This document shows, in pieces, positions 35,334-64,000 of a stretch of DNA of 64,000 bases. Made by a program: the position numbers and the translations under genes. Location: assembly GCA_964472305.1 (NCBI GenBank), contig CAYYJR010000001.1, positions 117,220-181,219 on the forward strand, given 5' to 3'. Numbering within the stretch: the first letter of the stretch is position 1; each line of letters begins with the position of its first letter. The notes beneath the pieces were generated by a model. That model saw only the letters and a list, made by a program, of their open reading frames with translations. It did not search any database and had not been told where the DNA came from. This DNA comes from an uncultured bacterium (GTDB lineage Bacteria > Armatimonadota > Hebobacteria > CAIYQO01).

Positions 35334-35803
35334 CGCATTACGATAACAGGCGATGCGGTTTGTCGTTTTCGCGTTCACTCCGGAGATGACGAAATGTGAA
35401 GCGTAACCTTCTCGGTGACCCCGGATACACCAGTATCCGGGGTCGCCTGACGTGAATCCCATCCCACTGGCCATCCGGAGATGGCCGGGAGCACCCCATC
35501 GGTCTTGATGCGTTGTTACCACTGTCACCCCTCCCATTTTTGAAACACTTTTGCAGTATTGGCACACCGACAGGGTCGCCCGGTGCTTGGCTGACGGTCA
35601 TTTTGCGAAAACGACCAATTCAAACCGCATCGGATGGGGAGCACTGTCAGGAAAGGTGTGAGCGAAAGCATGACGAATAGTCTTGCTTTGGTGAATGAGA
35701 TAAGCTGGCGTATTTCGTAATTTAGACCTCTTCATGTTATGTAATGCAGGAAATTGAGCGATGCCGCGGCACTCGCACAGCAGCAGCGAATGAGTTTACG
35801 GTA

Positions 35804-36478
35804 ATGCTGATGACAGATGGTACTCAAGATGCCGGATCGGTTCACACCTCGTCTGTGGCGGCTCCTTCAGGTAGAAAATTGGCGAATGAGGAGCAGCTCA
35901 CCTTGCTGGTACGTCGTTTTCAACTTGGCGATGGCCATGCATTCGAGACGCTGCTCGAACACGTCACTCCGTGCATCACTCCGATTATCTCCCGCTTCGC
36001 TCGTCATCACGCTGACGCCCAGGATGTTATGCAGGAAGTCGCGATTCAACTGTTGCGTGCATTACCGCGCTTTCGCAGTGAATGCCAGGTGTCAACTTTC
36101 ATCTATCGCGTGACGCTCAACGTCTGCATGAATTGTAAAAAGCGGTGGGCGCATACACCGTTGACATTCACCGATATTGCTTTCGCTGACACCGATGAAC
36201 CATGCGACCGCACACTATCCGTACCCCCGTATCCCACCCCCGAGCATGCTTTCATACAGAGAGAGCGGGAGGAAGTCTTGCACGCGTTGATTTACAGTCT
36301 CGATCCCAAGTTTCGCGCGGTCCTGGTCTTGACGGATATCTGTGGGATGAGTCAGCAGGAAATTGCCCAGATTATGCAAACCCCGCTGAACACCGTGAAA
36401 ACGCGACAGAAACGGGCGCGGGATGCGATGCGAAAAAAAATTCTCGCGCGGCAGGAACTATTTGACCGTGTCGGGTGA
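35804..36478 (+). CDS. RNA polymerase sigma-70 factor, ECF subfamily
   Basis: Region 2 (LVRRFQLGDGHAFETLL...QDVMQEVAIQLLRALPRF) and region 4 (DICGMSQQEIAQIMQTPLNTVKTRQKRAR). The track ORF starts at 35744; start chosen at MLMTDG, uncertain. Confidence 0.85.
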   Translation: MLMTDGTQDAGSVHTSSVAAPSGRKLANEEQLTLLVRRFQLGDGHAFETLLEHVTPCITPIISRFARHHADAQDVMQEVAIQLLRALPRFRSECQVSTFIYRVTLNVCMNCKKRWAHTPLTFTDIAFADTDEPCDRTLSVPPYPTPEHAFIQREREEVLHALIYSLDPKFRAVLVLTDICGMSQQEIAQIMQTPLNTVKTRQKRARDAMRKKILARQELFDRVG

Positions 36479-37611
36479 CGAAGGTGAGTATGCAGTGTCG
36501 CCAGATATCAGCACAGATCATCGCCTATCTGAAAGGTGAACTCGCGCGGGAGGAAGCCACGCGCGTTACATCGCATCTCGCCGCCTGCCCGCGGTGCCGT
36601 GATGAAGCACGCGTGCTGGGCAACGCTTTCAGCGAGATGGCACGGCTGCCGACCTTTCGCGTCACTTATGACATTCACGCGATCGAGGCGGGGGCCTGGC
36701 GTCAGCCACCGGCGGCGCCCATCCGCCAGTGGTGGAAACTTGTGCCCGCGGTCGCCTGTGCCGCCGTGATTGTCATTATGGGATTCCTGGTCTATCATCG
36801 CATCTCGACCACACGGATCGCGCAGCGTCCAAGGCTATCCCCGCGTTCGCCCGCGCCCGCGGTTGCGCCCCGGCCCAAGGTTCCCGTTCGTATGGGGCCG
36901 GACGAAAGTGATCAACCGCACATCGCGATGCGCCGGCACGAAGAGCGCCAGGTGGTGGCTGACAACCGGCGCCATGCACACCGGCAGGTGGCACCCCGGC
37001 AGCAACGCACGGCGCCACGCGCTGAACGGCAGCACGCGACCCCGCGTGGAACGGTACAGCATCCGCCGCGGCAGGAATCGGTTCCCCCCGTCGACGGGGA
37101 TGCGGTGATTGCGCAATACGTCGATACGCTGGCGCTGTGCATGACCCAATCCGATAATCCTCGCGCCTCAATTTCCTGTTCGATACTGCCGGTCGCCACT
37201 GCCGACGAACGGGATTTGCCCGTCGCTGACTCGCTGACCGCCGCGCTGGTGTGCGCGTTCAATGACCGGCATGTCACAATCGATATCAAGCGGTTGGCCC
37301 CGTTGGCGACGACGGCTGATCTGCAAACACTGACGCCGAATGCCGCCACCCTCGCACGCCTTGCCGACACGGTAACGGGTGATTATGTGATTGCCGGGCA
37401 CTTGAAAAAGGCGAAAGCCGGGTATGTGCTATCGCTCTATGCCTTCGACAAGCAGGGGCAGTCGATGGTCTTTGACGGCGACCATCCGATTTTATTGCCG
37501 TCCAGTGTGATACCCCGGTTCAGCGACATAATCAGTCACGGCATGATGCGCACGATCGCGATCGCATCCGCCGCGAAACACCGTCAACAATACCGGCAAT
37601 CATGCTCCTGA
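36475..37611 (+). CDS. anti-sigma factor with ZAS zinc-finger, one TM helix and a periplasmic TolB-N/LpoB-like C-terminal domain
   Basis: 4-nt overlap with the sigma gene. HLAACPRC ZAS motif. TM WWKLVPAVACAAVIVIMGFLVY. C-terminal ...TVTGDYVIAGHLKKAKAGYVLSLYAFDKQGQ pattern. Confidence 0.8.
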   Translation: MTKVSMQCRQISAQIIAYLKGELAREEATRVTSHLAACPRCRDEARVLGNAFSEMARLPTFRVTYDIHAIEAGAWRQPPAAPIRQWWKLVPAVACAAVIVIMGFLVYHRISTTRIAQRPRLSPRSPAPAVAPRPKVPVRMGPDESDQPHIAMRRHEERQVVADNRRHAHRQVAPRQQRTAPRAERQHATPRGTVQHPPRQESVPPVDGDAVIAQYVDTLALCMTQSDNPRASISCSILPVATADERDLPVADSLTAALVCAFNDRHVTIDIKRLAPLATTADLQTLTPNAATLARLADTVTGDYVIAGHLKKAKAGYVLSLYAFDKQGQSMVFDGDHPILLPSSVIPRFSDIISHGMMRTIAIASAAKHRQQYRQSCS

Positions 37612-37684
37612 TCCGGGAACTATTTTCCATCGCCGGCGTACAAAGCAAGCAAATCAACGTTATCTATCCCAAGGAGGTAGCAGC

Positions 37685-38659
37685 ATGAGATTCGTAGCTC
37701 GAATACACAGGGGTCTGCTCATTTCCGTCCTGGCACTTTGCGGTCTGACCGGTGCGTTCGCGCAGGCGGCGACCACGACGAAGGTGTCCGTTGAAGTCAC
37801 CAATGTGGTGGATGTCATCGGCGACGGAAAGATCGACTGGTCAAAAGAAGAGATTCGCGCACGGGGCATCGGTTTTGCGCCCAAGTTCGCGAAAACCCCC
37901 GGTCAGATGACCGTGCTGGCGCGGGAAGCGGCACTGGTCGCGGCGGAACGCAACCTGCTGAAGGTAATAAATGGCGTGCATGTCACGTCGGAAACGACGG
38001 TCGAAAACCTGGAAGTGACGCAGGATATCATCAAGACAAGTGTGAAAGGTCTCCTGAAAGGCGCGGTGATCGTCAGCGAGAAGCCGTTTGGCGAGAATGG
38101 CTACGAAGTGGTGCTGGCCGTGAATCTTTATGACGAGAAAAATGCTCTGTCGCAGAGCATTGATCTCCCCGTCCAGTTCAAAGCGGCGAATCCGGGTGTC
38201 ACGATTGTCCCGACCACGCCGAAGGAAGATCCGAAGTCCGACATTACGCCCGTGATTACGCCCCCGGTTACCCCATCGGTTACGCCCTCCGCTCCCGAAC
38301 AGCAGCCGGAGCGTTATACCGGACTCGTCATCGATTGCCGCGGGCTCGGTCTGGCGCGCTCCATGTGTCCCCGCATCCTCGATCAGACTGGGGGGAATCT
38401 CTGGAGTACCTCGATGGTGTCTGTGGAACTTGTCAACGAACGGGGTATTGCGGGTTACTTCACGACGCTGGATGATCCTGCCTTGCTTGATCGCGTCGGC
38501 AAACACCCGCTGGTGGTGACGGCGCTGCGACTTGGGGGCGGCAAGCAATTCAAAACGGATGCGATTGTCAGTCCGGCGGATGCGGAGTTGATCCGTACGG
38601 AAAATCAACAGGCCTTGTTCCTCGACAAATTGAATGTCGCCTTCCTGACCGAAAATTAA
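37685..38659 (+). CDS. secreted LPP20-like domain protein with Pro/Thr linker and unknown C-terminal domain (cluster gene 1)
   Basis: RBS GGAGG. Signal peptide with a possible lipobox (LALCG). N-terminal domain ...VHVTSETTVENLEVTQDIIKTSVKGLLKGAVIV...YEVVLAV fits the LPP20/FlgP pattern. Confidence 0.7.
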   Translation: MRFVARIHRGLLISVLALCGLTGAFAQAATTTKVSVEVTNVVDVIGDGKIDWSKEEIRARGIGFAPKFAKTPGQMTVLAREAALVAAERNLLKVINGVHVTSETTVENLEVTQDIIKTSVKGLLKGAVIVSEKPFGENGYEVVLAVNLYDEKNALSQSIDLPVQFKAANPGVTIVPTTPKEDPKSDITPVITPPVTPSVTPSAPEQQPERYTGLVIDCRGLGLARSMCPRILDQTGGNLWSTSMVSVELVNERGIAGYFTTLDDPALLDRVGKHPLVVTALRLGGGKQFKTDAIVSPADAELIRTENQQALFLDKLNVAFLTEN

Positions 38660-38701
38660 CCGCGCCGTGGCGCGTAGCGAATGATTGAAAAGGAGTATCC
38701 C

Positions 38702-39514
38702 ATGAAACGATATGTTCTCTGGCTCAACTGTCTGGTGCTGTTGCTGGCTGCGGTGAGCGCGCTGGCGGCGCCCGCCGAAAAAGTGAACCCGACACCAAAA
38801 TGTAATAAGCGTGCCATCCTCTGGCGCTCCCTTGATATGCCGGCGAATGCCCATGACGGCGATATCTGGATCAATCCCATCGACGGCATGGAGATGGTGT
38901 ATATCGGCAAGGGTTCCTTCCGCATGGGCAGCAATGAAGTCGCCGATGAGCGACCCTATCATAAAGTCAGCACCAAAGCATATTGGATCGCCAGGTACGA
39001 GGTGAGCGTAGCGCAATATCGCAAATTCAGCGAAATCACCAAACACCCGATGGCGGCTATGCCGGATGTGCGCTGGCTGGAGAATTCGCCGATCGTGAAC
39101 GTCGATTGGAACGACGCGGTCGCTTACGGCAAGTGGGCGAACGGCCGCCTGCCGTCCGAAGCCGAGTGGGAAAAAGCGGCGCGCGGGCGAAAAAGCCAGA
39201 TTTATCCCTGGGGCAATGCCTGGGATGCCGCTCGCTGCAATAACGGGTTGGAAGGGAAGAATGCGCCGATGAAAGTCGGCAGCTTCCCCGCCGGCGTCAG
39301 TTTCTATGGCGTGATGGATATGGCGGGTAATGTCAGCGAGTGGTGTGACGGCGTCTATGAGAAGCAAGGTGATCTCATGGACTATCGCGTTCTCCGCGGC
39401 GGCTCCTGCCATGACATCACCTCGAACGCGTATCGCGCCAGCCGGCGCGATTACCTGTCCCCCGCCACCCGCGCGAATGTCATCGGCATGCGCTACGTGA
39501 TGGATGCCCGGTAA
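38702..39514 (+). CDS. secreted FGE-sulfatase (SUMF1/GldK-like fold) domain protein (cluster gene 2)
   Basis: RBS AAGGAG. Signal peptide MKRYVLWLNCLVLLLAAVSALAAPA. Family hallmarks: RGGSC, NLGFR-like and WEKAARG/YPWGN motifs. Confidence 0.75.
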   Translation: MKRYVLWLNCLVLLLAAVSALAAPAEKVNPTPKCNKRAILWRSLDMPANAHDGDIWINPIDGMEMVYIGKGSFRMGSNEVADERPYHKVSTKAYWIARYEVSVAQYRKFSEITKHPMAAMPDVRWLENSPIVNVDWNDAVAYGKWANGRLPSEAEWEKAARGRKSQIYPWGNAWDAARCNNGLEGKNAPMKVGSFPAGVSFYGVMDMAGNVSEWCDGVYEKQGDLMDYRVLRGGSCHDITSNAYRASRRDYLSPATRANVIGMRYVMDAR

Positions 39515-39578
39515 CGACGAAGCGCAGCGCGGAAACAGGAAGCTACCGCTCGCTTCTCGAATGCTGAAAGGAAATACC

Positions 39579-40751
39579 ATGCGACACTATATTCATTGTG
39601 TCCCATTTTGGCGGATGCTCGCTGCCGTTCTCCTCACCCTGATGCTGGTGTTTGCCGTGAGCCTTGCCGTCATGGCGCAGGACGGCAAGGCGGAGTCCGA
39701 GTTCAAAACGGTCGTCGCGCAGGGCGTCGGCGCCGGTCCGGATCGTGCCAAAGCCCGCGACGATGCGATACAGGATGCCCAGCGCAAAGCGGTGGAACAG
39801 GGATTGGGCCTGTATATTAAGTCCGAGACGGTGGTGAACAACCTGGAACTGGTTTCCGACACGATTTATAAAGACTCCGCCGGTTTCGTGCACACGTATA
39901 CCGTGACCGCCGAGAATTATGATGACGCCAAGGACCTGTACTGGGTAAAAATCACTGCCAAGGTGTCCCTGCAGCGGTTGGAAAATCGGCTGGACGATCT
40001 GTATGACAAGCTGAAGATCGCCGGAAATCCGCGCATCATCATGGCGCTCAACGGCACCGACAGCCTGCGCGATCCCGACGGCATCGTGAATGCGTTGACC
40101 AGCGAGATGGTGGAGAAAGGCTATAAAGTCATCGACGAGGATCAGCTCACGTCCGTGCGGCAGAAAGACGCGTTGCGCCTGATTCGCCAGGGGGAAGTCG
40201 ATGCCAATACGGTGATGCTGCTGCAGGATAAAGCGGACATCATCATCACCGGCAAGGTGTCGGCGGATAATCCCGAGCGCATCATGGACGATCCGGCTAC
40301 CTTCTCGCAGAAGGTGACCTTGGACGCGAAAATCATCCGGACGGATACCGCCCAGATACTGGGCGCCAAACGCGGCCTCGGGGTGGGCGCGGCATTCTCG
40401 ACCAAGGCGGCGCTGGAAGCCGCGGAAGATAAAGTCGGCGCCGACTATTTGAGCAAGAATCAACGCACGCTGTTGCGCGCCGTGCTCGACCCGTGCAAGG
40501 AATATACGGTCAAAGTGGCGCCCTGCACCTTCGCCCAGTTGTCCGCCGTCGAGAGCAAGCTCATCCAGTCGCGCTTCGTCCGCCAGGCGGATGCGCGCTT
40601 CGAGGAAGGCTATGGCGTGCTGACGGTCTCGTTCACCGGCAATGCCAAAACGCTGGCCATGCACCTGGAATCGCATATCGGGAAAGAAATTCGCCTGAAG
40701 GTGATTTCCGTCACCGGGGTGACGGTGATGGTGAAACCCGTCGCCGAGTGA
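39579..40751 (+). CDS. secreted LPP20-like plus TolB-N/CsgG/LpoB-like two-domain protein (cluster gene 3)
   Basis: RBS GAAAGGAAAT. N-terminal TM/signal sequence. GVGAGPDRAKARDDAIQDAQRKAVEQGLGLYIKSETVV LPP20 pattern. A central domain ending in an (I/V)xGxVS motif. The track ORF starts earlier, at 39504. Confidence 0.7.
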   Translation: MRHYIHCVPFWRMLAAVLLTLMLVFAVSLAVMAQDGKAESEFKTVVAQGVGAGPDRAKARDDAIQDAQRKAVEQGLGLYIKSETVVNNLELVSDTIYKDSAGFVHTYTVTAENYDDAKDLYWVKITAKVSLQRLENRLDDLYDKLKIAGNPRIIMALNGTDSLRDPDGIVNALTSEMVEKGYKVIDEDQLTSVRQKDALRLIRQGEVDANTVMLLQDKADIIITGKVSADNPERIMDDPATFSQKVTLDAKIIRTDTAQILGAKRGLGVGAAFSTKAALEAAEDKVGADYLSKNQRTLLRAVLDPCKEYTVKVAPCTFAQLSAVESKLIQSRFVRQADARFEEGYGVLTVSFTGNAKTLAMHLESHIGKEIRLKVISVTGVTVMVKPVAE

Positions 40752-40965
40752 AACGACCAGGGGAATGCCGGGTGGGTCGATATGGCTTGTCGGATGCAAG
40801 CACATGTCTATCTGGAGATACGGACCTGCTCGACCACACGACTACCGTCACGCCCTGACAAATACAGGAGGCATGGTGTATCATATCTGGTCGTAGGAGC
40901 ATGATCGCCTGCCCGGCATTCTTTCAATGTGTTTATACATTTCACAGTAAGGAGGACACCTACAG

Positions 40966-41934
40966 ATGATCCGTATAATCGTATCATTGCTGCTGCTGGC
41001 AGTCGGCCTATCGGCGTTCGCACAAGGCTCGGGGGATTTGCGTAGCGGAGAAAGGCCGTTTAATTATGAATTCGCTAAACGAGTTACCGGTGCCGGATGG
41101 ACTTACAAAGGTGAAGCTACCATTACTGGAATACTCTTTGATAATTACGGATTGATCGAGCATATATATCAAAATGTCGATTGGATAACTTTCAATATTA
41201 CCGGTTGGGATCACTTCGTCGCATATATCGGCATCTCGGATGATAAAACAGGCAATAGCGATATTGTCATCGAGACAGACGGCACGCAGGTTTTCTCACG
41301 AAAGGTCACTGCCGGCGACAGGGCCGTTGCCATCGATATCCCGCTCACCGGGCGCAAGACGATGACGATACGTGCGAAAACCCCGGCGATTTTCGCTGAT
41401 CCCAAGTTGGTGAAAGGAAACCCAACACAACCTCCTGTACAACAACCATCAACCTCATCAACTACAATACCCCCTTCACAGCCGGCCACCTTCGTGGTTG
41501 ATCCCAGCGATCTCGATAAACTCGCTTCGGCTCTGCGTAAGCGCGTAGACAACAAGCCGGAATTGAAGACGAAACTGGATAACGGTTTCATGGCGGTGAT
41601 GACGTTCAACCTGATCGACATCCCATCTGCATCTATCTCATTGAATGTCATCGAGGATTTGTCCACCCGCATGATTAACGCCGATTTTCAGCTTGTCGAG
41701 CGCGGGCAACTCGACAAGGCGTTGAAAGAGTTGAAGATACAAGATTCCGCCTTGATCGACCAGGCGACGGCGCAAAAACTCGGCCAACTTACCGGCTGCA
41801 ACTATATCCTCGTCGGCAGCGTCTCCGACCGCGGGCAGTTCATCGTGATGAACGCGCGCATCCTGGAGACGGCAACCGGCAAAGCCATCGCCGCCGAGAG
41901 CGTGGAGTGCCGGAAGATTCCGATCAATCGATGA
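40966..41934 (+). CDS. secreted protein with lower-GC N-terminal beta-sandwich-like domain, Pro/Ser/Thr linker, and C-terminal TolB-N/CsgG/LpoB-like domain (cluster gene 4)
   Basis: RBS AAGGAGG. Signal peptide. C-terminal AVMTFNLID...VERGQLDKALKELKIQ...AQKLGQLTGCNYILVGSVSDRGQFIVMNARILETATGKAIA. Confidence 0.7.
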   Translation: MIRIIVSLLLLAVGLSAFAQGSGDLRSGERPFNYEFAKRVTGAGWTYKGEATITGILFDNYGLIEHIYQNVDWITFNITGWDHFVAYIGISDDKTGNSDIVIETDGTQVFSRKVTAGDRAVAIDIPLTGRKTMTIRAKTPAIFADPKLVKGNPTQPPVQQPSTSSTTIPPSQPATFVVDPSDLDKLASALRKRVDNKPELKTKLDNGFMAVMTFNLIDIPSASISLNVIEDLSTRMINADFQLVERGQLDKALKELKIQDSALIDQATAQKLGQLTGCNYILVGSVSDRGQFIVMNARILETATGKAIAAESVECRKIPINR

Positions 41935-41974
41935 CCCTGTATGAGCACAGTCAATCCGTGAGAATGGAGGCATT

Positions 41975-43555
41975 ATGGGAAGGGTGTGGTTTGTTGTCGC
42001 CATGGTGATGGCCGGCGCGGTTTTCGTGCAGGCAGCGTCTGCGCAGGATGTCATGCGCACCGTGGCGGTCGCCATGGTGGAGCAGATTGTCGGGAATCCC
42101 GATGTCCAGCGGTTGCAGGGGAAGACGGTGGCCGTCGCGCGGTTTCGCAATCGCGGCACGGATGAAAATCTTGACGTGTCGGCCTTGCAGGATAAAGTCA
42201 TCACCGCGCTTGTGAAGGCGAAACTTTTCACCGTGGTCGAGCGCGAGCAACTCAACACGGCGCTGCAACAGTTGAAGATCGACGTTGCCAGCGGATTGAT
42301 CGACCGAAACGAGCAGAAGGAACTGGGCAAGTTTCTCTCTGCGGATTATCTGTTGATCGGCGTCGTATCCGGCGACAGCCTGCACCCGTCGGTGGACGCG
42401 CGCCTGATGAAAATCGAAACGGGCGCGCTGGTCGCGGCGGCCGAGTATCCGGCGGAGAACGGGCGCGGCGGCCTCCCGGGGGATCCCGGTCCCGCGGAGC
42501 CGACGCCCGCGGCGGTGAAGTCGACCATTCAACTAATTTCCTACAATACCAGCATCTTCACACTGTCTTCGACCGCCGACAAAGAGGCGGATGCTGGCAG
42601 CGATGCGATTCGCTGGCTGGTTGACCAGCGTATTTTCGCCGATGCCAAAGACGTGCTCGAACGCTGGACGCCCGAGATCACCGGCAAAATCTATCGCAGT
42701 CCCGCGCGGCTGGTCGCGAAAGTCACGCCCCGCGCGGACGCCTATTACCTGGATGTCAATTTCGCCCAGATGATGCGCGAACTGGTTTTCATTATCTTCG
42801 GCAAAGTCACTCCGCGTATCGCGGTCGATACATCGGAAACCATCCTGCGCCGCAATCCCCCCGATCCGGCGGTGAAAACCGTCATCGAAGGCGCATTCCT
42901 CAAATACGGCTTCCAAGTGGTTGATACCGACCGGGCAAAAATGGCGCTGTTGCGCGAGGCATTGCGCCAGACCGAGGCTGGCGACAGCCTGGCGCCCAAT
43001 CTGGTGAAACAGTATCTGGGCGAGGTGCAGAGCGATATCATCGCCGTGGGCGACAGTTTCGCGGAAGAACGCGCCGAGCGCGACGGATTCGATGCGCGCA
43101 TAGAGTTCAAACTCGTTGAGGTAAACACCGGGCGAGTGCTCGCGTCGATTGAGAATACCGCCACCCTGTCGCGAAAGGATTATCCAGCGGTGGATGTGAC
43201 GTCGAGCGTACTCGGCAAGTTGGTATTGCAGCGCGCCGCGGAGGGGACGACCATTCGCATGTGCGCCGACATCCTGAAGTCATACGGCCAACCGGTCTAC
43301 GCCGTGCGCGTGTGGCATATCGGCAGCCTGGCCAATAAGCGGACGATCGAGGAGTGCCTGACGGAGCAGTTGCCCGGCGCGACGGTGACGACAACGTCGT
43401 TAGATTTACGGGCGACGAACTGCGCGCTCTTCAGCGTCATGACGAAACGGACGGCTGACCAGGTTGCCGAAGCGTTGGAAAAGGTTCCCGGCCTTCACGT
43501 TGCCGTTACTGGCATCGACTGCCGCTCGATTGTGTGTGAAATACCGGTTAAATAG
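41975..43555 (+). CDS. secreted protein with N-terminal TolB-N/CsgG/LpoB-like domain and further degenerate copies of the same fold (cluster gene 5)
   Basis: RBS GGAGG. Signal peptide. VAVARFRN...VVEREQLNTALQQLKID...LGKFLSADYLLIGVVSGD. Later repeats (...DIIAVGDSF...LVEVNTGRVLAS). Confidence 0.7.
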   Translation: MGRVWFVVAMVMAGAVFVQAASAQDVMRTVAVAMVEQIVGNPDVQRLQGKTVAVARFRNRGTDENLDVSALQDKVITALVKAKLFTVVEREQLNTALQQLKIDVASGLIDRNEQKELGKFLSADYLLIGVVSGDSLHPSVDARLMKIETGALVAAAEYPAENGRGGLPGDPGPAEPTPAAVKSTIQLISYNTSIFTLSSTADKEADAGSDAIRWLVDQRIFADAKDVLERWTPEITGKIYRSPARLVAKVTPRADAYYLDVNFAQMMRELVFIIFGKVTPRIAVDTSETILRRNPPDPAVKTVIEGAFLKYGFQVVDTDRAKMALLREALRQTEAGDSLAPNLVKQYLGEVQSDIIAVGDSFAEERAERDGFDARIEFKLVEVNTGRVLASIENTATLSRKDYPAVDVTSSVLGKLVLQRAAEGTTIRMCADILKSYGQPVYAVRVWHIGSLANKRTIEECLTEQLPGATVTTTSLDLRATNCALFSVMTKRTADQVAEALEKVPGLHVAVTGIDCRSIVCEIPVK

Positions 43556-43567
43556 CAGGAGGACTCG

Positions 43568-45565
43568 ATGTTTTGTGGTGTCACATTTTTTTGTTCGCCC
43601 CGTATGCTCGGGGTGTTGATGCTGTGTGTCGTCACCGGTATCGCCGCACAGGCGGGATTGTACCAGCATTACATTATCGATCGTTCAGATGGTGGAAGCA
43701 TCTTTAAAGTTCCCTATTATGCTTACATCATCAGCAATATCCCGGAGCTGGATGTCATGCGTCCCATGTGTCGGACGGTGTTGATGCGGCGCCATAAAAA
43801 TACGCCCCACGTGTTGTATATCCCGCTGGCGCAAGTCGGGACATACGGCAGAAAAAAGACGGAGTTGCTCCCATACGATCACCTGAAGAACACGGAAACA
43901 GTGGTCGTGATCGACCGCTCCCGGTTGACCGATGCGGAGAAGACCGCGCTTGGCAAACTCCAACTCTATGTGTTCCCGCTTATGGCGCCGTTGCCGCAAT
44001 CCGGGTGTGTGCGCACCTGGGTGCAGACGACCGGAGCCGAGGAATACCAGGTATACGTTGAACTTCCCGAGGTGAGTTGGATCGAGCAGGCGGCGAATGA
44101 TTTGTGGGCATTGCCCAGCACGGCGCCGGTGAGCGTACAGCAGACGCTGGACATCGTACACAAAGTCTGCCGGACGGCGATGTTGTCCAACGATGCGCAG
44201 GCACGCAATGCGCTGCTCGCGGTCATTAAATACAGCCGGGTGCAATCGTTCACCCTGGACGATTACGAGAAGTTTGCCGGCCTCCGCGACGTCGATCAGA
44301 AATTGATCGCGTTGAATTGGAACGGCGAAGAAGAATGCACCGCCGAAATGGCGGTGCGAATTCTTCCACCGAGCTTGCGCGCGCCATGTCATTTGCAGAC
44401 GCCGGACCGCGTGGGACTGACGGGATGGCAGCGCTTCTGCCGGACGGCGGTGGCACGGCACGAAAAAGGCGAAGAGGATACCTGGGCTATCTGCGCGCCC
44501 ACCGCGCAGTTTCTCAATGAACTGGTTACCAAAGTGATTGCCCGTAATTTCGAAGGCGGACCCTACGATATACCGGTGTATGATCTCAGTTATATTACCA
44601 GCCTTGCGGTGGGCACATCCCTCGGGGTGGGCGATCCTGATCGCGAACGCTTGCTGCCCGGGCCAGTGCAGATGCAAATGGAGGAGGTTGCGGGAACGGC
44701 ATTTCGCATGAAAGTCCGCTCGATGGTTTCCACGCAGAACTGGGGTCGTGTCCTCGACGAAGCACTTGGCAAAAACGCCGACACGGATGATCCCTTGCGC
44801 AAGCCGGACACCATCCGCCGGGTCAATCAGGCCAGTAACACCGATGCAGTCCTGCTGCTTATGGTGCGCAAACTCTCTCCGCAGGTGACGTATACGTTCC
44901 CCCGTAATCGGATTACCGAACCTTATCCAGCGTTCACAGAAAAGGAACCGGATAAACCGAATAAGCCGGATGCCGACAGGCGTAAATCGCCATTCGGGCC
45001 GCATGTATATCCGGGTGAAGCACACAAAGATCGTGTCAACTCCCGTGAATATCAGGAAGACCTGGCGAAATATACCTATATCGAACTCCCCAAATGGGAG
45101 CGTGCGCGTGAGAAGTGGGAGCAAAATCGCCGGGAATGGGAGCGCGGGAAATCATCGTACCAGGTGAATTATGAGTTCGAGGTGGTCACCACCCCCGCGA
45201 TGTCGCTGGGTGGGCAACTGAAATTATTGGATATGTATGCCACGCAAAATGTGTTGTGGAGTACGGACGTGAACCTGGCCAGCAACGGTGAGCGGAAACA
45301 GATACTCACAATTCCGGTTCAGGTGACCGGCGAAGATACCGATCCCCCCCAACCGCGCGCGATGAACAATTATTCGAATAAATATACCTGGAGTGACTGC
45401 AGCGCCACAGTCGGTTCCGATACCGTTTACGGCATGGGGCAATCCCTGTTGGTCAGGTCATTACGGGACGGTGTCGCGGAACTGGTGAAGACGGCGCTCT
45501 GGTACACTGATTTGAAGCCATGGAGCCGGCCGGGAAAAACATCGCGCGGCACGCCATACGAATAA
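43568..45565 (+). CDS. large hypothetical membrane-anchored/secreted protein, 665 aa, no recognised domain (cluster gene 6)
   Basis: RBS AGGAGG 13 nt after the gene-5 stop. N-terminal hydrophobic segment. Lower-GC 5' end. Confidence 0.6.
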   Translation: MFCGVTFFCSPRMLGVLMLCVVTGIAAQAGLYQHYIIDRSDGGSIFKVPYYAYIISNIPELDVMRPMCRTVLMRRHKNTPHVLYIPLAQVGTYGRKKTELLPYDHLKNTETVVVIDRSRLTDAEKTALGKLQLYVFPLMAPLPQSGCVRTWVQTTGAEEYQVYVELPEVSWIEQAANDLWALPSTAPVSVQQTLDIVHKVCRTAMLSNDAQARNALLAVIKYSRVQSFTLDDYEKFAGLRDVDQKLIALNWNGEEECTAEMAVRILPPSLRAPCHLQTPDRVGLTGWQRFCRTAVARHEKGEEDTWAICAPTAQFLNELVTKVIARNFEGGPYDIPVYDLSYITSLAVGTSLGVGDPDRERLLPGPVQMQMEEVAGTAFRMKVRSMVSTQNWGRVLDEALGKNADTDDPLRKPDTIRRVNQASNTDAVLLLMVRKLSPQVTYTFPRNRITEPYPAFTEKEPDKPNKPDADRRKSPFGPHVYPGEAHKDRVNSREYQEDLAKYTYIELPKWERAREKWEQNRREWERGKSSYQVNYEFEVVTTPAMSLGGQLKLLDMYATQNVLWSTDVNLASNGERKQILTIPVQVTGEDTDPPQPRAMNNYSNKYTWSDCSATVGSDTVYGMGQSLLVRSLRDGVAELVKTALWYTDLKPWSRPGKTSRGTPYE

Positions 45566-45735: not shown

Positions 45736-46059
45736 TTACTCGTGCCGTGCAATTGCCGACATGTCGACCAGCGCGCCTTGCGCCCGCAGCGCCGCGCGCA
45801 AGGCATCCATCTCGATCCGCGCAAACGGGATGGCGCGCGCGGCAACCTGTGCCGCCACCACTCCCACGGCTTCGCCCATTGCCATCACCCGTAGCGGTCC
45901 CAGCACGTCGCACTCGACGCTCACCGCACGGCCCGGGCAGATAAGATTTTCGACCGGTTGGGGCAGCATGATGCGGTAGGGGATCGGTGTGACCGGCACC
46001 GTACGTTGAAAGTGCAATGGTGAATGCCGCATACAGCGATCCTTTCCGCCGACAACCAT
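45736..46059 (-). pseudogene. possible remnant: C-terminal fragment resembling an FAD-dependent oxidoreductase, with no upstream N-terminal domain
   Basis: 107-aa ORF ...LICPGRAVSVECDVLGPLRVMAMGEAVGVVAAQVAARA... in an otherwise ORF-poor 880-bp gap. The identification is weak. Confidence 0.3.
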
Positions 46060-46219
46060 CCATCTAGATTAGAAGACGGCCAGGTATTGTATTCAGCACC
46101 GTAGTTCTCACACCTGCTTGCCCTTAGTTTTCGTCGCACTGACCCAAATACGTGTGGCAAGTAATGGCTAAAATATATCAAATTGCCCTTCGACAATAGA
46201 GGGTACCCCGTGATTTTGG

Positions 46220-46248
46220 TTGACAGGCATTGAACGCTGTGTTACACT
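46220..46248 (+). promoter_or_regulatory. sigma-A type promoter TTGACA-N17-TACACT, followed by a ~195-nt 5' UTR for the SLH-OMP gene
   Basis: ttgacaggcattgaacgctgtgttacact. Confidence 0.55.
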
Positions 46249-46445
46249 AGCCCATAGTAGGTCAGAGGAAGATCGCATCTCGAAACGGCGGTATCTCCCT
46301 TACTGATCGTCAAACGCTTTCGGTTATGGCGGTAGCTCGTACATCTTAGAATGGGCGCAAAGGAAATTTAGACAACTATTCGCCTCTTCACCCACGATGC
46401 CGGCATGGCCACATTCCAAGCTTTACTTTGAAGGAGGTACAACAC

Positions 46446-48260
46446 ATGAGAAAGTGGATCGGAGCCTTCGTGGTCTCCCTCCTGATCGCCTCCGCTTTCC
46501 CAGTATTCGCGGAAGGGCCATTCTCGGATGTCCCCGAGACGCACTGGGCTGCCAAAGCGGTTGCTGATCTTGCACAGGCCGGCATTCTGGAAGGCGTGCG
46601 CGTCGGAACGACGGCACAATTCCAGGGCACACGTCCCATGACCCGTTTTGAGATTGCCATGGCACTGGCGCGCGTGCTCGAAATTGTCGAAGGCGTGAAG
46701 CCTTCCACGCCAGGCAAACAACTCACCATGCAGGACGTGATCAACGAGATTCAGAACAACCCGCAGGTGCAGGCGAAACTGCGCGGTCCCGCCGGTCCCG
46801 CCGGCGCTCCGGGTGCTGTCGGTCCTGCCGGCGCTCCGGGTGCTCCGGGCGCGATTGGTCCTGCCGGTCCTGCCGGTACTCCTGGTACACCAGGCATCGC
46901 CGGTCCCGCCGGTCCTGCCGGTCCTGCCGGTCCTGCCGGCCCTCCGGGAAAAGGTTTGACTGACGAGCAGATTGCGCAGTTAACCAAATTGCTGACCACC
47001 TTCGGGCCGGAAATCGCCGCGGTGCGCGGCGACATCCGCAGCTTGCAGGAGCGCGTCACTGCGCTGGAAGCGGCCGTGGGCAACAAAACCCCGCAATTGC
47101 GCACCAGCGTGCACGGCGCCATGCGCTTCGGCGTTCAGGGAAGCGGACTGGATTTCAGTGCCGGCGCTGACTCGAACACTAATGGCATTGAAGACTCGGT
47201 TGAAGCGATCGGCGCCCTTCCGGACTTTGCGAAAGACGCATCGAAGTCGTCGCGCTTCGGCGTTTACCAGACTGACGTGAATTTCGACGGTTCCGTGTCG
47301 GAGAATCTGGCCGGGCACCTGACCATGCGCATCGTCAGCCCGATCTCGGCAACGCCCGTCGGCAATCCTGTATACTCCGGAACTATCGTAGCCGACAATC
47401 TGCAGTTGTGGGATTGGTACGCGACCTTCAACGCGCCCCAGATCTTCGGTCAGAAGATCGCCGTGACGGCTGGTCGGCACTCGACCATCATCGCCCAGGG
47501 CCTGGCGGTCGACACCAATCGGCGCCCGCTGGCCGGCATCTCGCTTGACAGCGGCACCGGCAACTATACCTACGGCGCGAACTTCTCGACCAATGACGGC
47601 CACAGCCCGGTCATGTATGGCTACCTGGGCTACAATATCGGCGATTTGTCCGATACCCTGACGAACTGGAACGTGGTTGGCAATTACATGCCGCGCGGTC
47701 TTGCGGGCGAGAGCGTATGGAACATCGGCGCGGAAGGCAACATTGCCGGCTATCGCGTGTTCGGTGAATATGCGCATGAGAATCTAGGTGCCATCAGTGG
47801 TTTGTTCAGCGATTTGGATAATCGCGGGGCACTCGTCATCGGCGCTGACGTGCTGAATAACTGGAACGGTCTGAATATGACCGCGCGGATCGGGAAAATT
47901 GGAGCCGGATACACCAACACCACCGGCATTCTGAATCCGTATACTTCGGCGAACGCGTTCGATCTCGATTGGGTCGATCGTCCGCTCTTCCTGAGCCAGA
48001 CCAATGTCACCGATGGGTGGGAAACTGATTTCCATTACACCTACGGGAAAGACACCCTGCTGCGCGCTCGCATTTATGGCGGGTTCGGCGATCAGAATGC
48101 CGGGGCGTCGGGCGATACCGCCCTCATCCTGTCGGCGAAGAAACCCATCGCCACTGGTGTCGCCGCCAATCTGCTGTGGGGTTACCGCGGCATTTCCGTG
48201 CCCACCGATAGCGCGAGCAACCTGCAAGTGTTGCGCGCCGGTCTTGAATTCACGCTGTAG
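46446..48260 (+). CDS. outer-membrane protein: signal peptide, SLH domain, collagen-like Gly-X-Y segment, coiled coil, C-terminal beta-barrel-like region (OmpM/Slp-like)
   Basis: RBS GGAGG. SLH motif [25 protein letters not shown]...[13 protein letters not shown]. 19 GPA/GAP triplets. A coiled-coil stretch [41 protein letters not shown]. The C-terminal ~400 aa has an alternating hydrophobic pattern. Confidence 0.8.
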
Positions 48261-48283
48261 CCTGAATTCGCGACCCGACATCC

Positions 48284-48313
48284 GAACGGCCTTCCCGCAA
48301 GGGGAGGCCGTTC
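48284..48313 (+). terminator. 13-bp perfect hairpin after the OMP gene
   Basis: gaacggccttccc gcaa ggggaggccgttc. Confidence 0.6.
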
Positions 48314-48498
48314 GCCGTTCTGGGATACGCCATACCCACCCCTGTCGCATGGTAACGCCATCACCCGGCTTGCTTTGCAAGCACAGGTATGCTATATTGA
48401 ACATAGAAGTTGACTCACACCGGCCACACGGGAGCGCGTTCCATCGCAACGGAACCCGGTATGGCAATTATCGGTAAGACGGAGGAGTTCCTCGGGCA

Positions 48499-48945
48499 AT
48501 GCGCACCGTCTTTGTGATCCACGGACCCAATCTGAATCTGTTAGGGCGACGGGAGCCGGAAGTATACGGCACTGTCACGTTGGACGATATTAACTCGCGT
48601 CTGCGTGCACTGGCCACCGAATTGGGGCTGGAGATCCGCATTCTGCAATCAAATAGCGAGGGAGAGATTGTCTCTGCTATTCAAGACGCCGGTGATTGGG
48701 CTGAAGTGCTGATCCTCAACGCCGGCGGTTACACACACACCAGTGTGGCGATTCCCGACGCTATCAAAGGGGTGAGCCTTCCGACTATCGAGGTGCACCT
48801 CAGCAACATCCACGCGCGCGAATCGTTCCGCCAGCAAAACTACCTCTCTCGGGTGTGCGTGGGCCAAATTTGCGGATTTGGCGCGCAAAGTTATCTGCTC
48901 GCGCTACACGCCGCCCACGCTCTGAATGCCAACCTGTCCTTGTGA
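48499..48945 (+). CDS. aroQ: 3-dehydroquinate dehydratase, type II
   Basis: 148 aa. VIHGPNLNLLGRREPEVYG...LNAGGYTHTSVA...HLSNIHARE. Confidence 0.9.
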   Translation: MRTVFVIHGPNLNLLGRREPEVYGTVTLDDINSRLRALATELGLEIRILQSNSEGEIVSAIQDAGDWAEVLILNAGGYTHTSVAIPDAIKGVSLPTIEVHLSNIHARESFRQQNYLSRVCVGQICGFGAQSYLLALHAAHALNANLSL

Positions 48946-62227: not shown

Positions 62228-62626
62228 CGTCGAACGTCCCCTGTCTTCAACGGCGACGCCAGCGAAATCCCGTGTTGCGGTGTCGTCGTCTACGAATTCT
62301 TCGCCTCATCCGTTAACCGCCGATCCATACAATCGACCGGCATTCTTCTATCATGATAATGATAACATGAATTCGGTGGCGATGGTACACGCAGCAGGAA
62401 ATCGCTGATGATTTCGCCGTGGGCACGGCCGCACGGCAACACGAAGCCTGTCCTGTCCAACCACCGAGCCGGCACACGGGATGCACAGGCTGTGATCCTG
62501 CTACGTCAATGCGCTGCATCAGGCGTTTCGGGTGAGCCCCTGTATGCTCAAAGGAGCCACCGTACCCTCCTCACAACAAAAAAATTTCCCGTGGTGCAAT
62601 GATCTTACATGTTTAGATAGCAGCAC

Positions 62627-62647
62627 GCTTGACAACAATAGACTCAA
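62627..62647. promoter_or_regulatory. HAIR-like inverted repeat (HspR operator type) overlapping the dnaK -35
   Basis: CTTGACA acaatag ACTCAAG versus the HAIR consensus CTTGAGT-N7-ACTCAAG. Right arm 7/7, left arm 5/7. Confidence 0.5.
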
Positions 62648-62656
62648 GCTATATGC
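62628..62656 (+). promoter_or_regulatory. sigma-A type promoter for dnaK (TTGACA-N17-TATGCT)
   Basis: ttgacaacaatagactcaagctatatgct, about 60 nt upstream of the dnaK ATG. Confidence 0.55.
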
Positions 62657-62716
62657 TATAAGCAATGATAGCCGTCGCGAAAGCCAGGCGGCAAATTCAA
62701 GTGGAGGTATCACACC

Positions 62717-64000
62717 ATGGCAAAGGTTATCGGAATTGACCTCGGGACTACCAACTCGGTCGTGTCGGTGATGGAAGGCGGTGAGCCAACCGTCATCACG
62801 AATCCCGAAGGCAGCCGCCTGACGCCCTCGGTGGTGGCGTTCACCAAGGCCGGTGAGCGATTGGTCGGCCAACCCGCCAAACGGCAGGCGACCATCAATT
62901 CGGAAAATACGGTCTTTTCCATCAAGCGTTTCATGGGGCGCCGGTATGACGAGGTCGCCACCGAACGCGGGATGGTGCCCTATAAGGTCACCACCGGAGC
63001 CGGCGGCATGGCGGTGGTGGAGGTACAGGGGAAAACCTACACCCCCGAGGAAATTTCCGCGATGGTGCTGCAAAAACTGAAATCCGACGCGGAAACTTAC
63101 CTGGGCGAAAAGGTGGACGAGGCCGTCATCACCGTTCCGGCTTACTTCAACGACGCGCAGCGCACCGCCACCAAAACGGCGGGCGAGATCGCGGGATTGA
63201 AGGTGCTGCGCATCATCAACGAGCCGACGGCGGCGGCGCTGGCCTACGGGCTGGACCGCAAGAAGGACGAGACCATCCTGGTCTGGGACCTGGGCGGCGG
63301 CACCTTCGACGTGTCGGTACTCGACGTGGGCGACGGCGTATTTGAAGTGCGCTCTACCAACGGCGACACCCACCTGGGCGGCGACGACTGGGACGAGTGC
63401 ATCGTGAACTGGATGGCGGACGAATTTAAGAAGGAGCAGGGCATCGACCTGCGCCAGGACCGCCAGGCGTTGCAGCGTCTGCGCGAGGCGGCGGAGAAGG
63501 CGAAGATCGAGCTGTCCACCACGGTGCAGACGAACATTAACCTGCCCTTCGTCACCGCGGACCAGAACGGGCCGAAGCACCTGGATATGGTGCTCACCCG
63601 CGCGAAGTTCGAAGATTTGACGCACGACCTCGTGAAGCGGATGGAAGTACCGTTCCAGAGCGCGCTGCGCGATGCCGGCCTTTCCGCCAGCGAGTTGGAC
63701 GAGGTGATCATGGTCGGCGGGTCCACCCGCATGCCGATGGTTATCGAACTGGTACGCAAGCTGGCTGGCAAGGAGCCCCATCGCGGCGTGAACCCGGACG
63801 AAGTGGTCGCGGTCGGCGCTGCCATCCAGGGATCGGTGCTGGCCGGCGAGACCACGGGCGTGGTGCTGCTCGACGTCACCCCGCTGACACTGGGCATCGA
63901 GACTGCGGGCGGCATCTTTACCCGCATGATCGAGCGCAACACCACCATCCCGACGCGGAAGACGGAGACCTTCACCACCTACGGCGATGGCCAGACGGCG
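62717..64000 (+). CDS. dnaK: molecular chaperone DnaK (Hsp70), 5' part; continues past window end
   Basis: [28 protein letters not shown]...[10 protein letters not shown]...; absent from the ORF track only because it has no stop in the window. Confidence 0.97.

Follow-up and report, generated by a model that had tools for sequence, protein, structure and literature searches.

In a stretch of 64,000 nt from an uncultured bacterium (GTDB lineage Armatimonadota; Hebobacteria; CAIYQO01), taken from contig CAYYJR010000001.1 of GenBank assembly GCA_964472305.1 (positions 117,220 to 181,219 of the forward strand) and hereafter called the window, we identified a gene for an outer-membrane protein in which a collagen-like tract of 19 uninterrupted Gly-X-Y triplets precedes a coiled coil. 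The gene is located at 46446-48260 of the window (stop codon included) and specifies 604 amino acids (aa), of which aa 114-170 (46785-46955) constitute the tract; here and below, features lie on the plus strand unless marked (-). The protein, hereafter the query, is very probably a connector of the OmpM type. The hallmarks of OmpM and SlpA are present, namely a signal peptide and a single SLH domain with ligand motifs, a central coiled coil and a predicted C-terminal barrel. The explanation that we consider best, and hold with moderate confidence, is a trimeric porin-tether of the OmpM/SlpA type with a composite collagen-like/coiled-coil stalk, and the protein probably serves as a diffusion channel and, at the same time, holds the outer membrane to the cell wall non-covalently. 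An initial annotation, made from the letters of the sequence, had placed 19 consecutive triplets ahead of the coiled coil and the open reading frame (ORF) at 46446-48260; the count and the coordinates are exact.

Domain architecture of the probable connector

The signal peptide (aa 1-22; 46446-46511), as read from the sequence, carries a VFA cleavage pattern followed by EG and has no lipobox cysteine; its n-region, h-region and VFA pattern are kept in the family consensus. It is followed by a single SLH domain (aa 25-71; 46518-46658), already proposed in the initial annotation, which passes the Pfam cut-off (PF00395; 28.0 bits against 20.8). Its motifs are W34, G61 and T66-R67-F68-E69, where W34, G61 and R67 are invariant in a family alignment of 49 sequences. 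In OmpM1 of V. parvula, the W/G/TRxE motifs are at nearly identical positions (W34, G58 and TRYE), and these counterparts bind sugar and pyruvate ketal in SLH-ligand complexes (PMC10628300).

Directly before the first Gly-X-Y triplet, the alignment and the AlphaFold2 model both indicate a short, conserved helix-turn-helix (aa 93-113; 46722-46784), whose modelled helices comprise residues 95-104 and 106-113. Its family consensus, TLDQIRNLILTDPDVQxxLRG, ends exactly at the first glycine of the tract. In the alignment, the helix-turn-helix and a short Gly-X-Y block are duplicated in P0024, P0027, P0028, P0029, P0032 and P0121. The duplicated unit of one subclade reads ATVDQLRxLILNDxxVQxKLRG plus Gly-X-Y; it is found in the related locus L001 too, and the tract is split into 5 + 8 triplets. 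This duplication of the whole unit in one subclade suggests that the helix-turn-helix and the tract evolve together as one module.

Pfam recognises the tract itself as Collagen (PF01391) with 32.8 bits at aa 114-169 (cut-off 27.2). A regular-expression scan counts 18 strict G-X-Y triplets at aa 114-167, and 19 with the final GKG, up to aa 170. The triplet GPA is found nine times, GAP three times and GTP twice, and GAV, GAI, GIA, GPP and GKG occur once each; proline occupies 10 of the 19 X positions and 6 of the 19 Y positions. Nineteen glycines in a perfect period of three are far beyond chance.

Five residues, LTDEQ, lie between the tract and the hydrophobic spacing of the coiled coil (aa 171-213; 46956-47084), which comprises five heptads. 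The 3-4 spacing, again read from the sequence, is perfect over I176, L179, L183, F186, I190, V193, I197, L200, V204, L207 and V211, and AlphaFold2 models aa 173-213 as one helix. Across homologues, the conserved motif is LTPEQ...LLxEFGPEIAAIRGDIRxL..RVxALE. It can be aligned with the coiled coils of SlpA (7ZGX) and of the cyanobacterial por_somb (positions 73-126). Assignment to the SomA/SomB iron-uptake porins (NCBIfam NF033921, por_somb) was considered and rejected: the score is 31 bits against a cut-off of 100, and the match is confined to the coiled coil at aa 172-225. By sequence comparison, the stalk module is all that por_somb and the query have in common, and the query is not a por_somb member.

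The C-terminal part (aa 218-603; 47097-48254) is predicted to form an 18-strand outer-membrane beta-barrel, the last strand of which, LRAGLEFTL, is amphipathic. AlphaFold2 was run on the monomer with the 49-sequence alignment, and yielded a mean predicted local distance difference test score (pLDDT) of 75.9, with barrel strands mostly above 90. Foldseek against the PDB returned outer-membrane barrels only. The best match is MOMP of C. jejuni (5LDT; E = 1e-12), an 18-strand barrel; V. parvula OmpM1 (8BYS_B) is matched at 3.6e-12 with a TM-score of 0.60 on the target, and further matches include AlgE and the OprD/Occ family (those to MOMP and OmpM1 span 1e-12 to 1e-10). The modelled strands and the resemblance to OmpM1 and MOMP thus bear out the C-terminal beta-barrel of the initial annotation. 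The barrel alone has no sequence-level match to any solved structure, the link being one of fold similarity only, and no Pfam or NCBIfam model covers it.

Searched against solved structures, the profile of the whole family retrieves OmpM1 (8BYS, 5e-24; 8BYM, 1.7e-22) and SlpA (7ZGX, 3.5e-23), where the match to SlpA spans profile positions 12-199, that is, the region of the SLH domain and the coiled coil. Together with the SLH and barrel assignments, these E values of about 1e-23 to both connectors support the earlier proposal that the protein is a tethering porin like OmpM whose stalk includes a collagen-like segment.

OmpM1 of V. parvula (8BYM, 8BYS, 8BYT; Silale et al. 2023, PMC10628300) has, like the query, a signal peptide, a single SLH domain, a coiled-coil stalk (trimeric in OmpM1) and a C-terminal porin barrel, and it binds polyamine-modified peptidoglycan. 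Its barrel consists of 16 strands instead of the 18 predicted for the query, and the two are only 12-13% identical in sequence. The SLH core helix of OmpM1 runs directly into a coiled coil of ~50 residues, R64-R113 (PMC10628300), whereas a linker, the helix-turn-helix and the 19 triplets lie between SLH domain and coiled coil in the query. SlpA of Deinococcus radiodurans (7ZGX, 7ZGY; von Kuegelgen et al. 2022, PMC9388160) is the same kind of SLH/coiled coil/barrel connector, but it covers a long span entirely by alpha-helical coiled coil and has a 30-strand barrel. The Armatimonadetes are among the phyla with SlpA-like/OmpM proteins, in which coiled-coil length and barrel size (8 to 30 strands) vary (PMC9388160); for the proteins reported from this phylum, the stalk was described as a coiled coil of variable length (bioRxiv 10.1101/2021.05.31.446380; PMC9388160). 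The query differs from the described OmpM/SlpA connectors by its composite stalk and its divergent 18-strand barrel.

In the outer-membrane proteins where collagen-like segments are known so far, these are extracellular. Bucl8 of Burkholderia (PMC7682875, PMC4565658) and the YadA-like autotransporters of Glaesserella parasuis, which have 111-129 triplets, resemble the query in that a Gly-X-Y tract is fused to an outer-membrane protein, which in their case is obligatorily trimeric, with the membrane domain as the trimeriser; their collagen-like regions are predicted or known to be outside the cell, in adhesion or host interaction. By analogy with Bucl8 and trimeric autotransporters, the SLH-collagen part of the query could be exposed at the surface, as a collagen-like adhesin or an S-layer anchor, instead of serving as a periplasmic tether. 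We consider this highly improbable. The even number of strands (18) and the coiled coil that leads straight into strand 1 imply a periplasmic N-terminal part, as in the structures of OmpM1 and SlpA; the SLH domain retains its cell-wall-binding residues, and the protein has no autotransporter or passenger-domain architecture. Unlike those of Bucl8 and the YadA-like proteins, the tract of the query would be on the periplasmic side, between the cell-wall-binding domain and the barrel.

The Gly-X-Y tract across homologous families

A first search for homologues was biased, as it uses a word index in which words of the GPAGP type draw unrelated collagens, and the census was redone with barrel-only queries. 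When aa 215-604 were compared by phmmer with 1.84 billion cluster representatives, just 50 hits were obtained, and the barrel family of the query is thus narrow. The full-length homologues are 31-45% identical over the full length, and P0121 is 52% identical over the barrel. The tract is present in 28 of the 29 barrel-only hits that retain the SLH end. In the combined set of 76 full-length members of the query's family, 75 carry the tract, 60 of them without interruption; the number of triplets has a median of 15 and ranges from 6 to 62 (12-22 in the query's clade), and the coiled coil that follows is near-constant in length, 42-52 aa over the 76-member census.

Moreover, the feature is not confined to the query's family. 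The tract is found in all 54 full-length members of another Armatimonadota family (P0054 type), 37 of which have 14 or 15 triplets, and 51 of the 110 members of an Abditibacteriaceae family carry 4-18 triplets. Homology between the three families extends over the whole protein, starting at the SLH domain and including the final barrel strand, at 22-27% identity, as aligned by hhalign (probability 100%; E = 1.7e-89 and 8.3e-58; 524-534 aligned columns). Since the same feature occurs in three families homologous over the full length, the tract is to be taken as a family trait and not as an insertion into the query gene. The initial annotation was right about the presence of the triplets, and wrong in having them inserted here: the tract is conserved and probably ancestral to the Armatimonadota/Abditibacteriota superfamily, having been lost or replaced later in some lineages.

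When one representative genome of each GTDB species was scanned for the motif [DN]W[IV]DRPLFL, 13 loci were found, all in metagenome-assembled genomes; nine are labelled Armatimonadota/Armatimonadetes or class Candidatus Hebobacteria, one Bacillota, and two are without a taxon name. An SLH domain and then a Gly-X-Y tract are encoded in 12 of the 12 full-length species-representative loci. By these labels, an uncultured member of the Armatimonadota is the most likely source of the window, an assignment based on homologues of at most 52% identity. The automatic annotation by the Joint Genome Institute (JGI) of homologue P0355 reads "Collagen triple helix repeat / S-layer homology domain"; the combination is visible in databases, and not yet interpreted. 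In the searchable literature, we found no paper that ties OmpM, SLH-barrel proteins or Armatimonadetes to collagen-like sequences. The word "collagen" is absent from bioRxiv 10.1101/2021.05.31.446380, from PMC9388160 with one supplementary file and from Silale et al. 2023, and a 2026 preprint on trimeric autotransporters has nothing relevant under that word.

The conservation of the tract bears on whether it could be a neutral, low-complexity expansion, generated when a 9-nt GGNCCNGCN repeat slipped during replication of the G+C-rich DNA, and tolerated in a linker without any structural role. Repeats are indeed present: Tandem Repeats Finder reports a partly degenerate repeat with a 9-nt period (~10 copies, 75% match) in the tract DNA, and at ~46893-46940, within the Gly-X-Y-coding region, the 9-nt unit GGTCCTGCC occurs three times perfectly and once with near-perfect match. 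Furthermore, the tract-coding region has 67% G+C, and the number of triplets differs between close relatives. Neutral expansion is nevertheless improbable, in our opinion, given that the tract occupies the same position in three homologous families at 22-27% identity. The 1219 triplets of the family comprise 133 different types, so that most of each tract is non-repetitive at the protein level and the tracts do not have the character of recent simple repeats or young microsatellites. Specific glycines of the tract are also conserved, with G141 and G162 invariant and six others kept in at least 90% of the sequences of the 49-sequence alignment. Decay of a neutral repeat predicts lost glycine codons and single-residue indels, whereas 60 of the 75 tracts are uninterrupted. 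As a separate observation, in-frame slippage at the GGTCCTGCC copies could alter the stalk by one triplet (~0.86 nm) within a population.

Proposed structure and role of the composite stalk

Over the 1219 family triplets, proline accounts for 46% of the X positions, 15.5% of the Y positions and 30.6% of X and Y together, and Ala, Gln, Val and Thr are abundant at Y. In Gram-positive bacterial collagens, the share of proline at X is 31%, and the X/Y residue preferences of the family tracts look collagen-like by this standard (PMC8968730). Bacterial collagens need no hydroxyproline for a stable triple helix if they adjoin a trimerisation domain (PMC8968730). The tract is flanked by the coiled coil and the porin-type barrel on its C-terminal side and by the SLH domain and the helix-turn-helix on its N-terminal side, the trimeric state of which we infer from OmpM1 and SlpA. 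The strict glycine period, the enrichment of proline at X and the putative trimerising modules on both sides suggest selection for a triple helix of ~16 nm. That the tract is triple-helical in the cell seems to us reasonably likely.

Several observations weigh against a triple-helical stalk. The pLDDT of the tract in the monomer model is below 50, as is expected for a triple-helix-forming segment modelled as a monomer. The query tract is GPA-rich and nearly without charged residues, and host-guest peptide data indicate that its triple helix alone might be marginally stable. The GPA triplets at its end are encoded by near-perfect 9-nt repeats, possibly a product of recent slippage during replication and not of selection. 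Across the superfamily, tract length varies tenfold, from 6 to 62 triplets. P0138, the lone exception among the hits that retain the SLH end, has 11 prolines in place of the tract; P0121, the closest homologue by its barrel, has only 5 + 4 triplets and a non-collagen linker. Finally, 59 of the 110 Abditibacteriaceae homologues, including that of the cultured Abditibacterium utsteinense (P0241), have no tract, and show a Pro/Thr-rich linker with an extra short helix at that position. Because of these 59 proteins, the collagen segment must be regarded as dispensable for the tether as such.

Part of these observations would be accounted for if the protein were an OmpM-type tether whose tract is a flexible, proline-rich leash, i.e., three independent polyproline-II-like or disordered chains between the SLH domain and the coiled coil. 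Homologues swap the tract for polyproline (P0138), for the Pro/Thr-rich linker (59 of the 110 Abditibacteriaceae) or for a largely degenerate version (P0121); tract length is widely variable; the query tract is without the charged residues that stabilise Scl2-type bacterial collagens; and mobility of the stalk has been described in VpOmpM1 (PMC10628300). We deem a leash unlikely, although it deserves more weight than either surface exposure or neutral expansion. Glycine at every third position is needless in a leash, yet the period is unbroken over up to 62 triplets, in proteins with barrels 31-45% identical and in spite of 133 triplet types. The asymmetry of proline between X and Y fits the preference of triple helices, and the clustering of triplet numbers within narrow limits, at 14-15 in one family and 12-22 in the query's clade, points to a defined length. 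In addition, chains that are held in register at both ends by trimeric modules present the most favourable case for a triple helix. If it were a flexible leash only, the tract would still be a phylum-level signature of these tethers, albeit of less interest.

For the triple-helical stalk that we favour, we propose the following course, in which we infer trimer formation, the triple helix, the ligand and the function as a ruler. The protein would be exported via Sec and inserted by the BAM machinery, after which the 18-strand barrels would trimerise. Below the barrel, the five-heptad coiled coil (41 residues x 0.15 nm, ~6 nm) would set the three chains in register and nucleate a collagen-type triple helix in the adjacent 19-triplet tract (57 residues x 0.286 nm, ~16 nm); the rise per residue is 0.286 nm in the collagen helix and ~0.15 nm in the alpha-helix. 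Because the barrels are inserted as monomers, the stalk would fold after barrel trimerisation, zipping from the coiled coil toward the N-terminus. There, it would be closed by the helix-turn-helix cap (~3 nm) and three SLH domains, one per chain, which may assemble into a pseudo-trimeric module with W34, G61 and R67 as the residues that bind either peptidoglycan or a pyruvylated secondary cell-wall polymer. The composite rod would measure ~22-25 nm from the SLH module to the barrel and thereby fix how far the outer membrane lies from the cell wall.

The two elements of this stalk have counterparts elsewhere. Collectins (SP-D, MBL) and class A scavenger receptors combine, in a single stalk, a collagen triple helix and, directly attached to it, a trimeric alpha-helical coiled coil that nucleates the trimer; these proteins are eukaryotic, hydroxylated and extracellular, and unrelated by descent to the query. 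Braun's lipoprotein Lpp and Omp-alpha of Thermotoga, which starts with an SLH domain, are rod-like trimeric/dimeric spacers whose length determines the gap between outer membrane and cell wall. Their rods are purely alpha-helical coiled coils, and Lpp is a lipoprotein covalently linked to peptidoglycan.

We tentatively extend the proposal to the superfamily, with less confidence than we have in the triple helix itself. The tethers of Armatimonadota and Abditibacteriota may ancestrally have had a collagen triple helix as their periplasmic spacer, and this helix would be the first collagen to work in the periplasm. It could then constitute a natural ruler, where the number of triplets, adjustable in steps of 0.86 nm by in-frame 9-nt slippage, sets the membrane-wall distance in each lineage. 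The ruler model predicts that the distance between the outer membrane and the peptidoglycan scales at 0.86 nm per triplet, and P0138 and the tract-less Abditibacteriaceae proteins are natural "no-collagen" controls for it. The longest tracts, those of P0127, P0132, P0135, P0157 and P0130 with 28-62 triplets, would correspond to 24-53 nm if they were straight triple helices. Such stalks are much longer than the ordinary gap between the outer membrane and the peptidoglycan; a very wide periplasm, or bending or tilting of the stalk, might account for them.

Connectors of the OmpM/SlpA type are regarded as the ancestral means by which Terrabacteria attach the outer membrane to the cell wall, and descriptions of their stalk have to date been limited to an alpha-helical coiled coil. 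A collagen stalk, if true, would represent a second structural solution for spanning the periplasm, with a helix almost twice as long per residue as the alpha-helix, and would add an internal, architectural function to the surface-adhesin role of bacterial collagens. It would also offer a predictor of envelope geometry that can be read from the sequence, in a phylum with few cultured members, and a source of short, hydroxyproline-free and naturally registered triple-helix modules for collagen engineering.

Gene boundaries, flanking signals and genomic neighbourhood

The ORF as delimited mechanically begins with TTG 46428. This start was rejected in favour of ATG 46446, because a perfect Shine-Dalgarno sequence, AAGGAGGT (46431-46438), is located 8 nt 5' of the ATG and the homologues likewise begin with MRKWIG; the stop codon is at 48258-48260. 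Two minus-strand ORFs, 46751-47122 (-) and 46980-47777 (-), were treated as shadows of the G+C-rich coding DNA.

Further upstream, in an intergenic stretch of 48% G+C, a sigma-70-like pattern, TTGACA-17 nt-TACACT with a TG extension (46220-46248), agrees with the consensus at 10 of 12 positions and is a candidate promoter only: the pattern scan gave one match against a mean of 1.4 in shuffled sequence, which is not significant by itself. The candidate would imply a leader of ~190 nt. At 46255-46450, the leader is no more stably folded than its shuffled counterparts (z = 0.04), and a comparison of 45900-48500 with Rfam gave no match at E < 0.1; the idea of a structured or stabilising leader was dropped on these two grounds. 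The high, stabilised expression that the initial annotation had deduced from the promoter and a ~195-nt leader is thus not sustained, given one chance-level consensus match and a leader with neither unusual folding nor an Rfam family.

A G+C-rich hairpin of 14 bp (48283-48314), which starts 23 nt past the stop codon, is probably a terminator or a stabiliser of the 3' end. It folds with -37.7 kcal/mol (z = -4.2), a value that none of 200 shuffles attained, and its T-tract is weak. This strong hairpin after the stop codon implies that the ompM-like gene is probably monocistronic.

Downstream of the ompM-like gene lie aroQ and a gene for an M24 peptidase, both housekeeping neighbours. In the related Armatimonadota loci L001 (5231-7006) and L002 (5287-7119), the gene directly 3' of the ompM-like gene specifies a GspE/PilB-type ATPase (GPTGSGKTT motif). 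Tandem paralogues downstream in these two loci had been considered and were rejected, the ORFs being unrelated and GspE/PilB-type ATPase-like. No gene neighbourhood is conserved between the window and the related loci, with aroQ in the former and the ATPase in L001 and L002. Neither a CsaB pyruvyl transferase nor a prolyl hydroxylase is among the 40 ORFs of the window scanned against Pfam.

On the opposite strand upstream, 45736-46059 (-) encodes only the last ~70 aa of a flavin adenine dinucleotide (FAD)-dependent oxidoreductase (PF12831, profile positions 346-416 of 416), and the minus-strand frames at 46060-46450, upstream of this fragment, are full of stop codons. The fragment appears to be what is left of a gene; its position, directly next to the promoter region of the ompM-like gene, is a hint of some old rearrangement.

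Beyond this remnant, a run of genes on the same strand as the ompM-like gene (35744-45565) may be an envelope-related operon. It specifies an extracytoplasmic function (ECF) sigma factor, a zf-HC2 anti-sigma factor, two proteins without a Pfam match and a protein with an FGE-sulfatase domain, as well as a CsgG/LpoB/FlgO-like protein with an NPCBM domain (40966-41934), a second CsgG/LpoB/FlgO-like protein (41975-43555) and a protein of 665 aa without a Pfam match. At the far end of the window, the ORF 62519-63781 (-), which matches Pfam PF10712 ("NAD-specific glutamate dehydrogenase"), was dismissed as an antisense shadow; the plus strand encodes DnaK/Hsp70 there, from ~62717 to 64000, and this gene runs off the window end.

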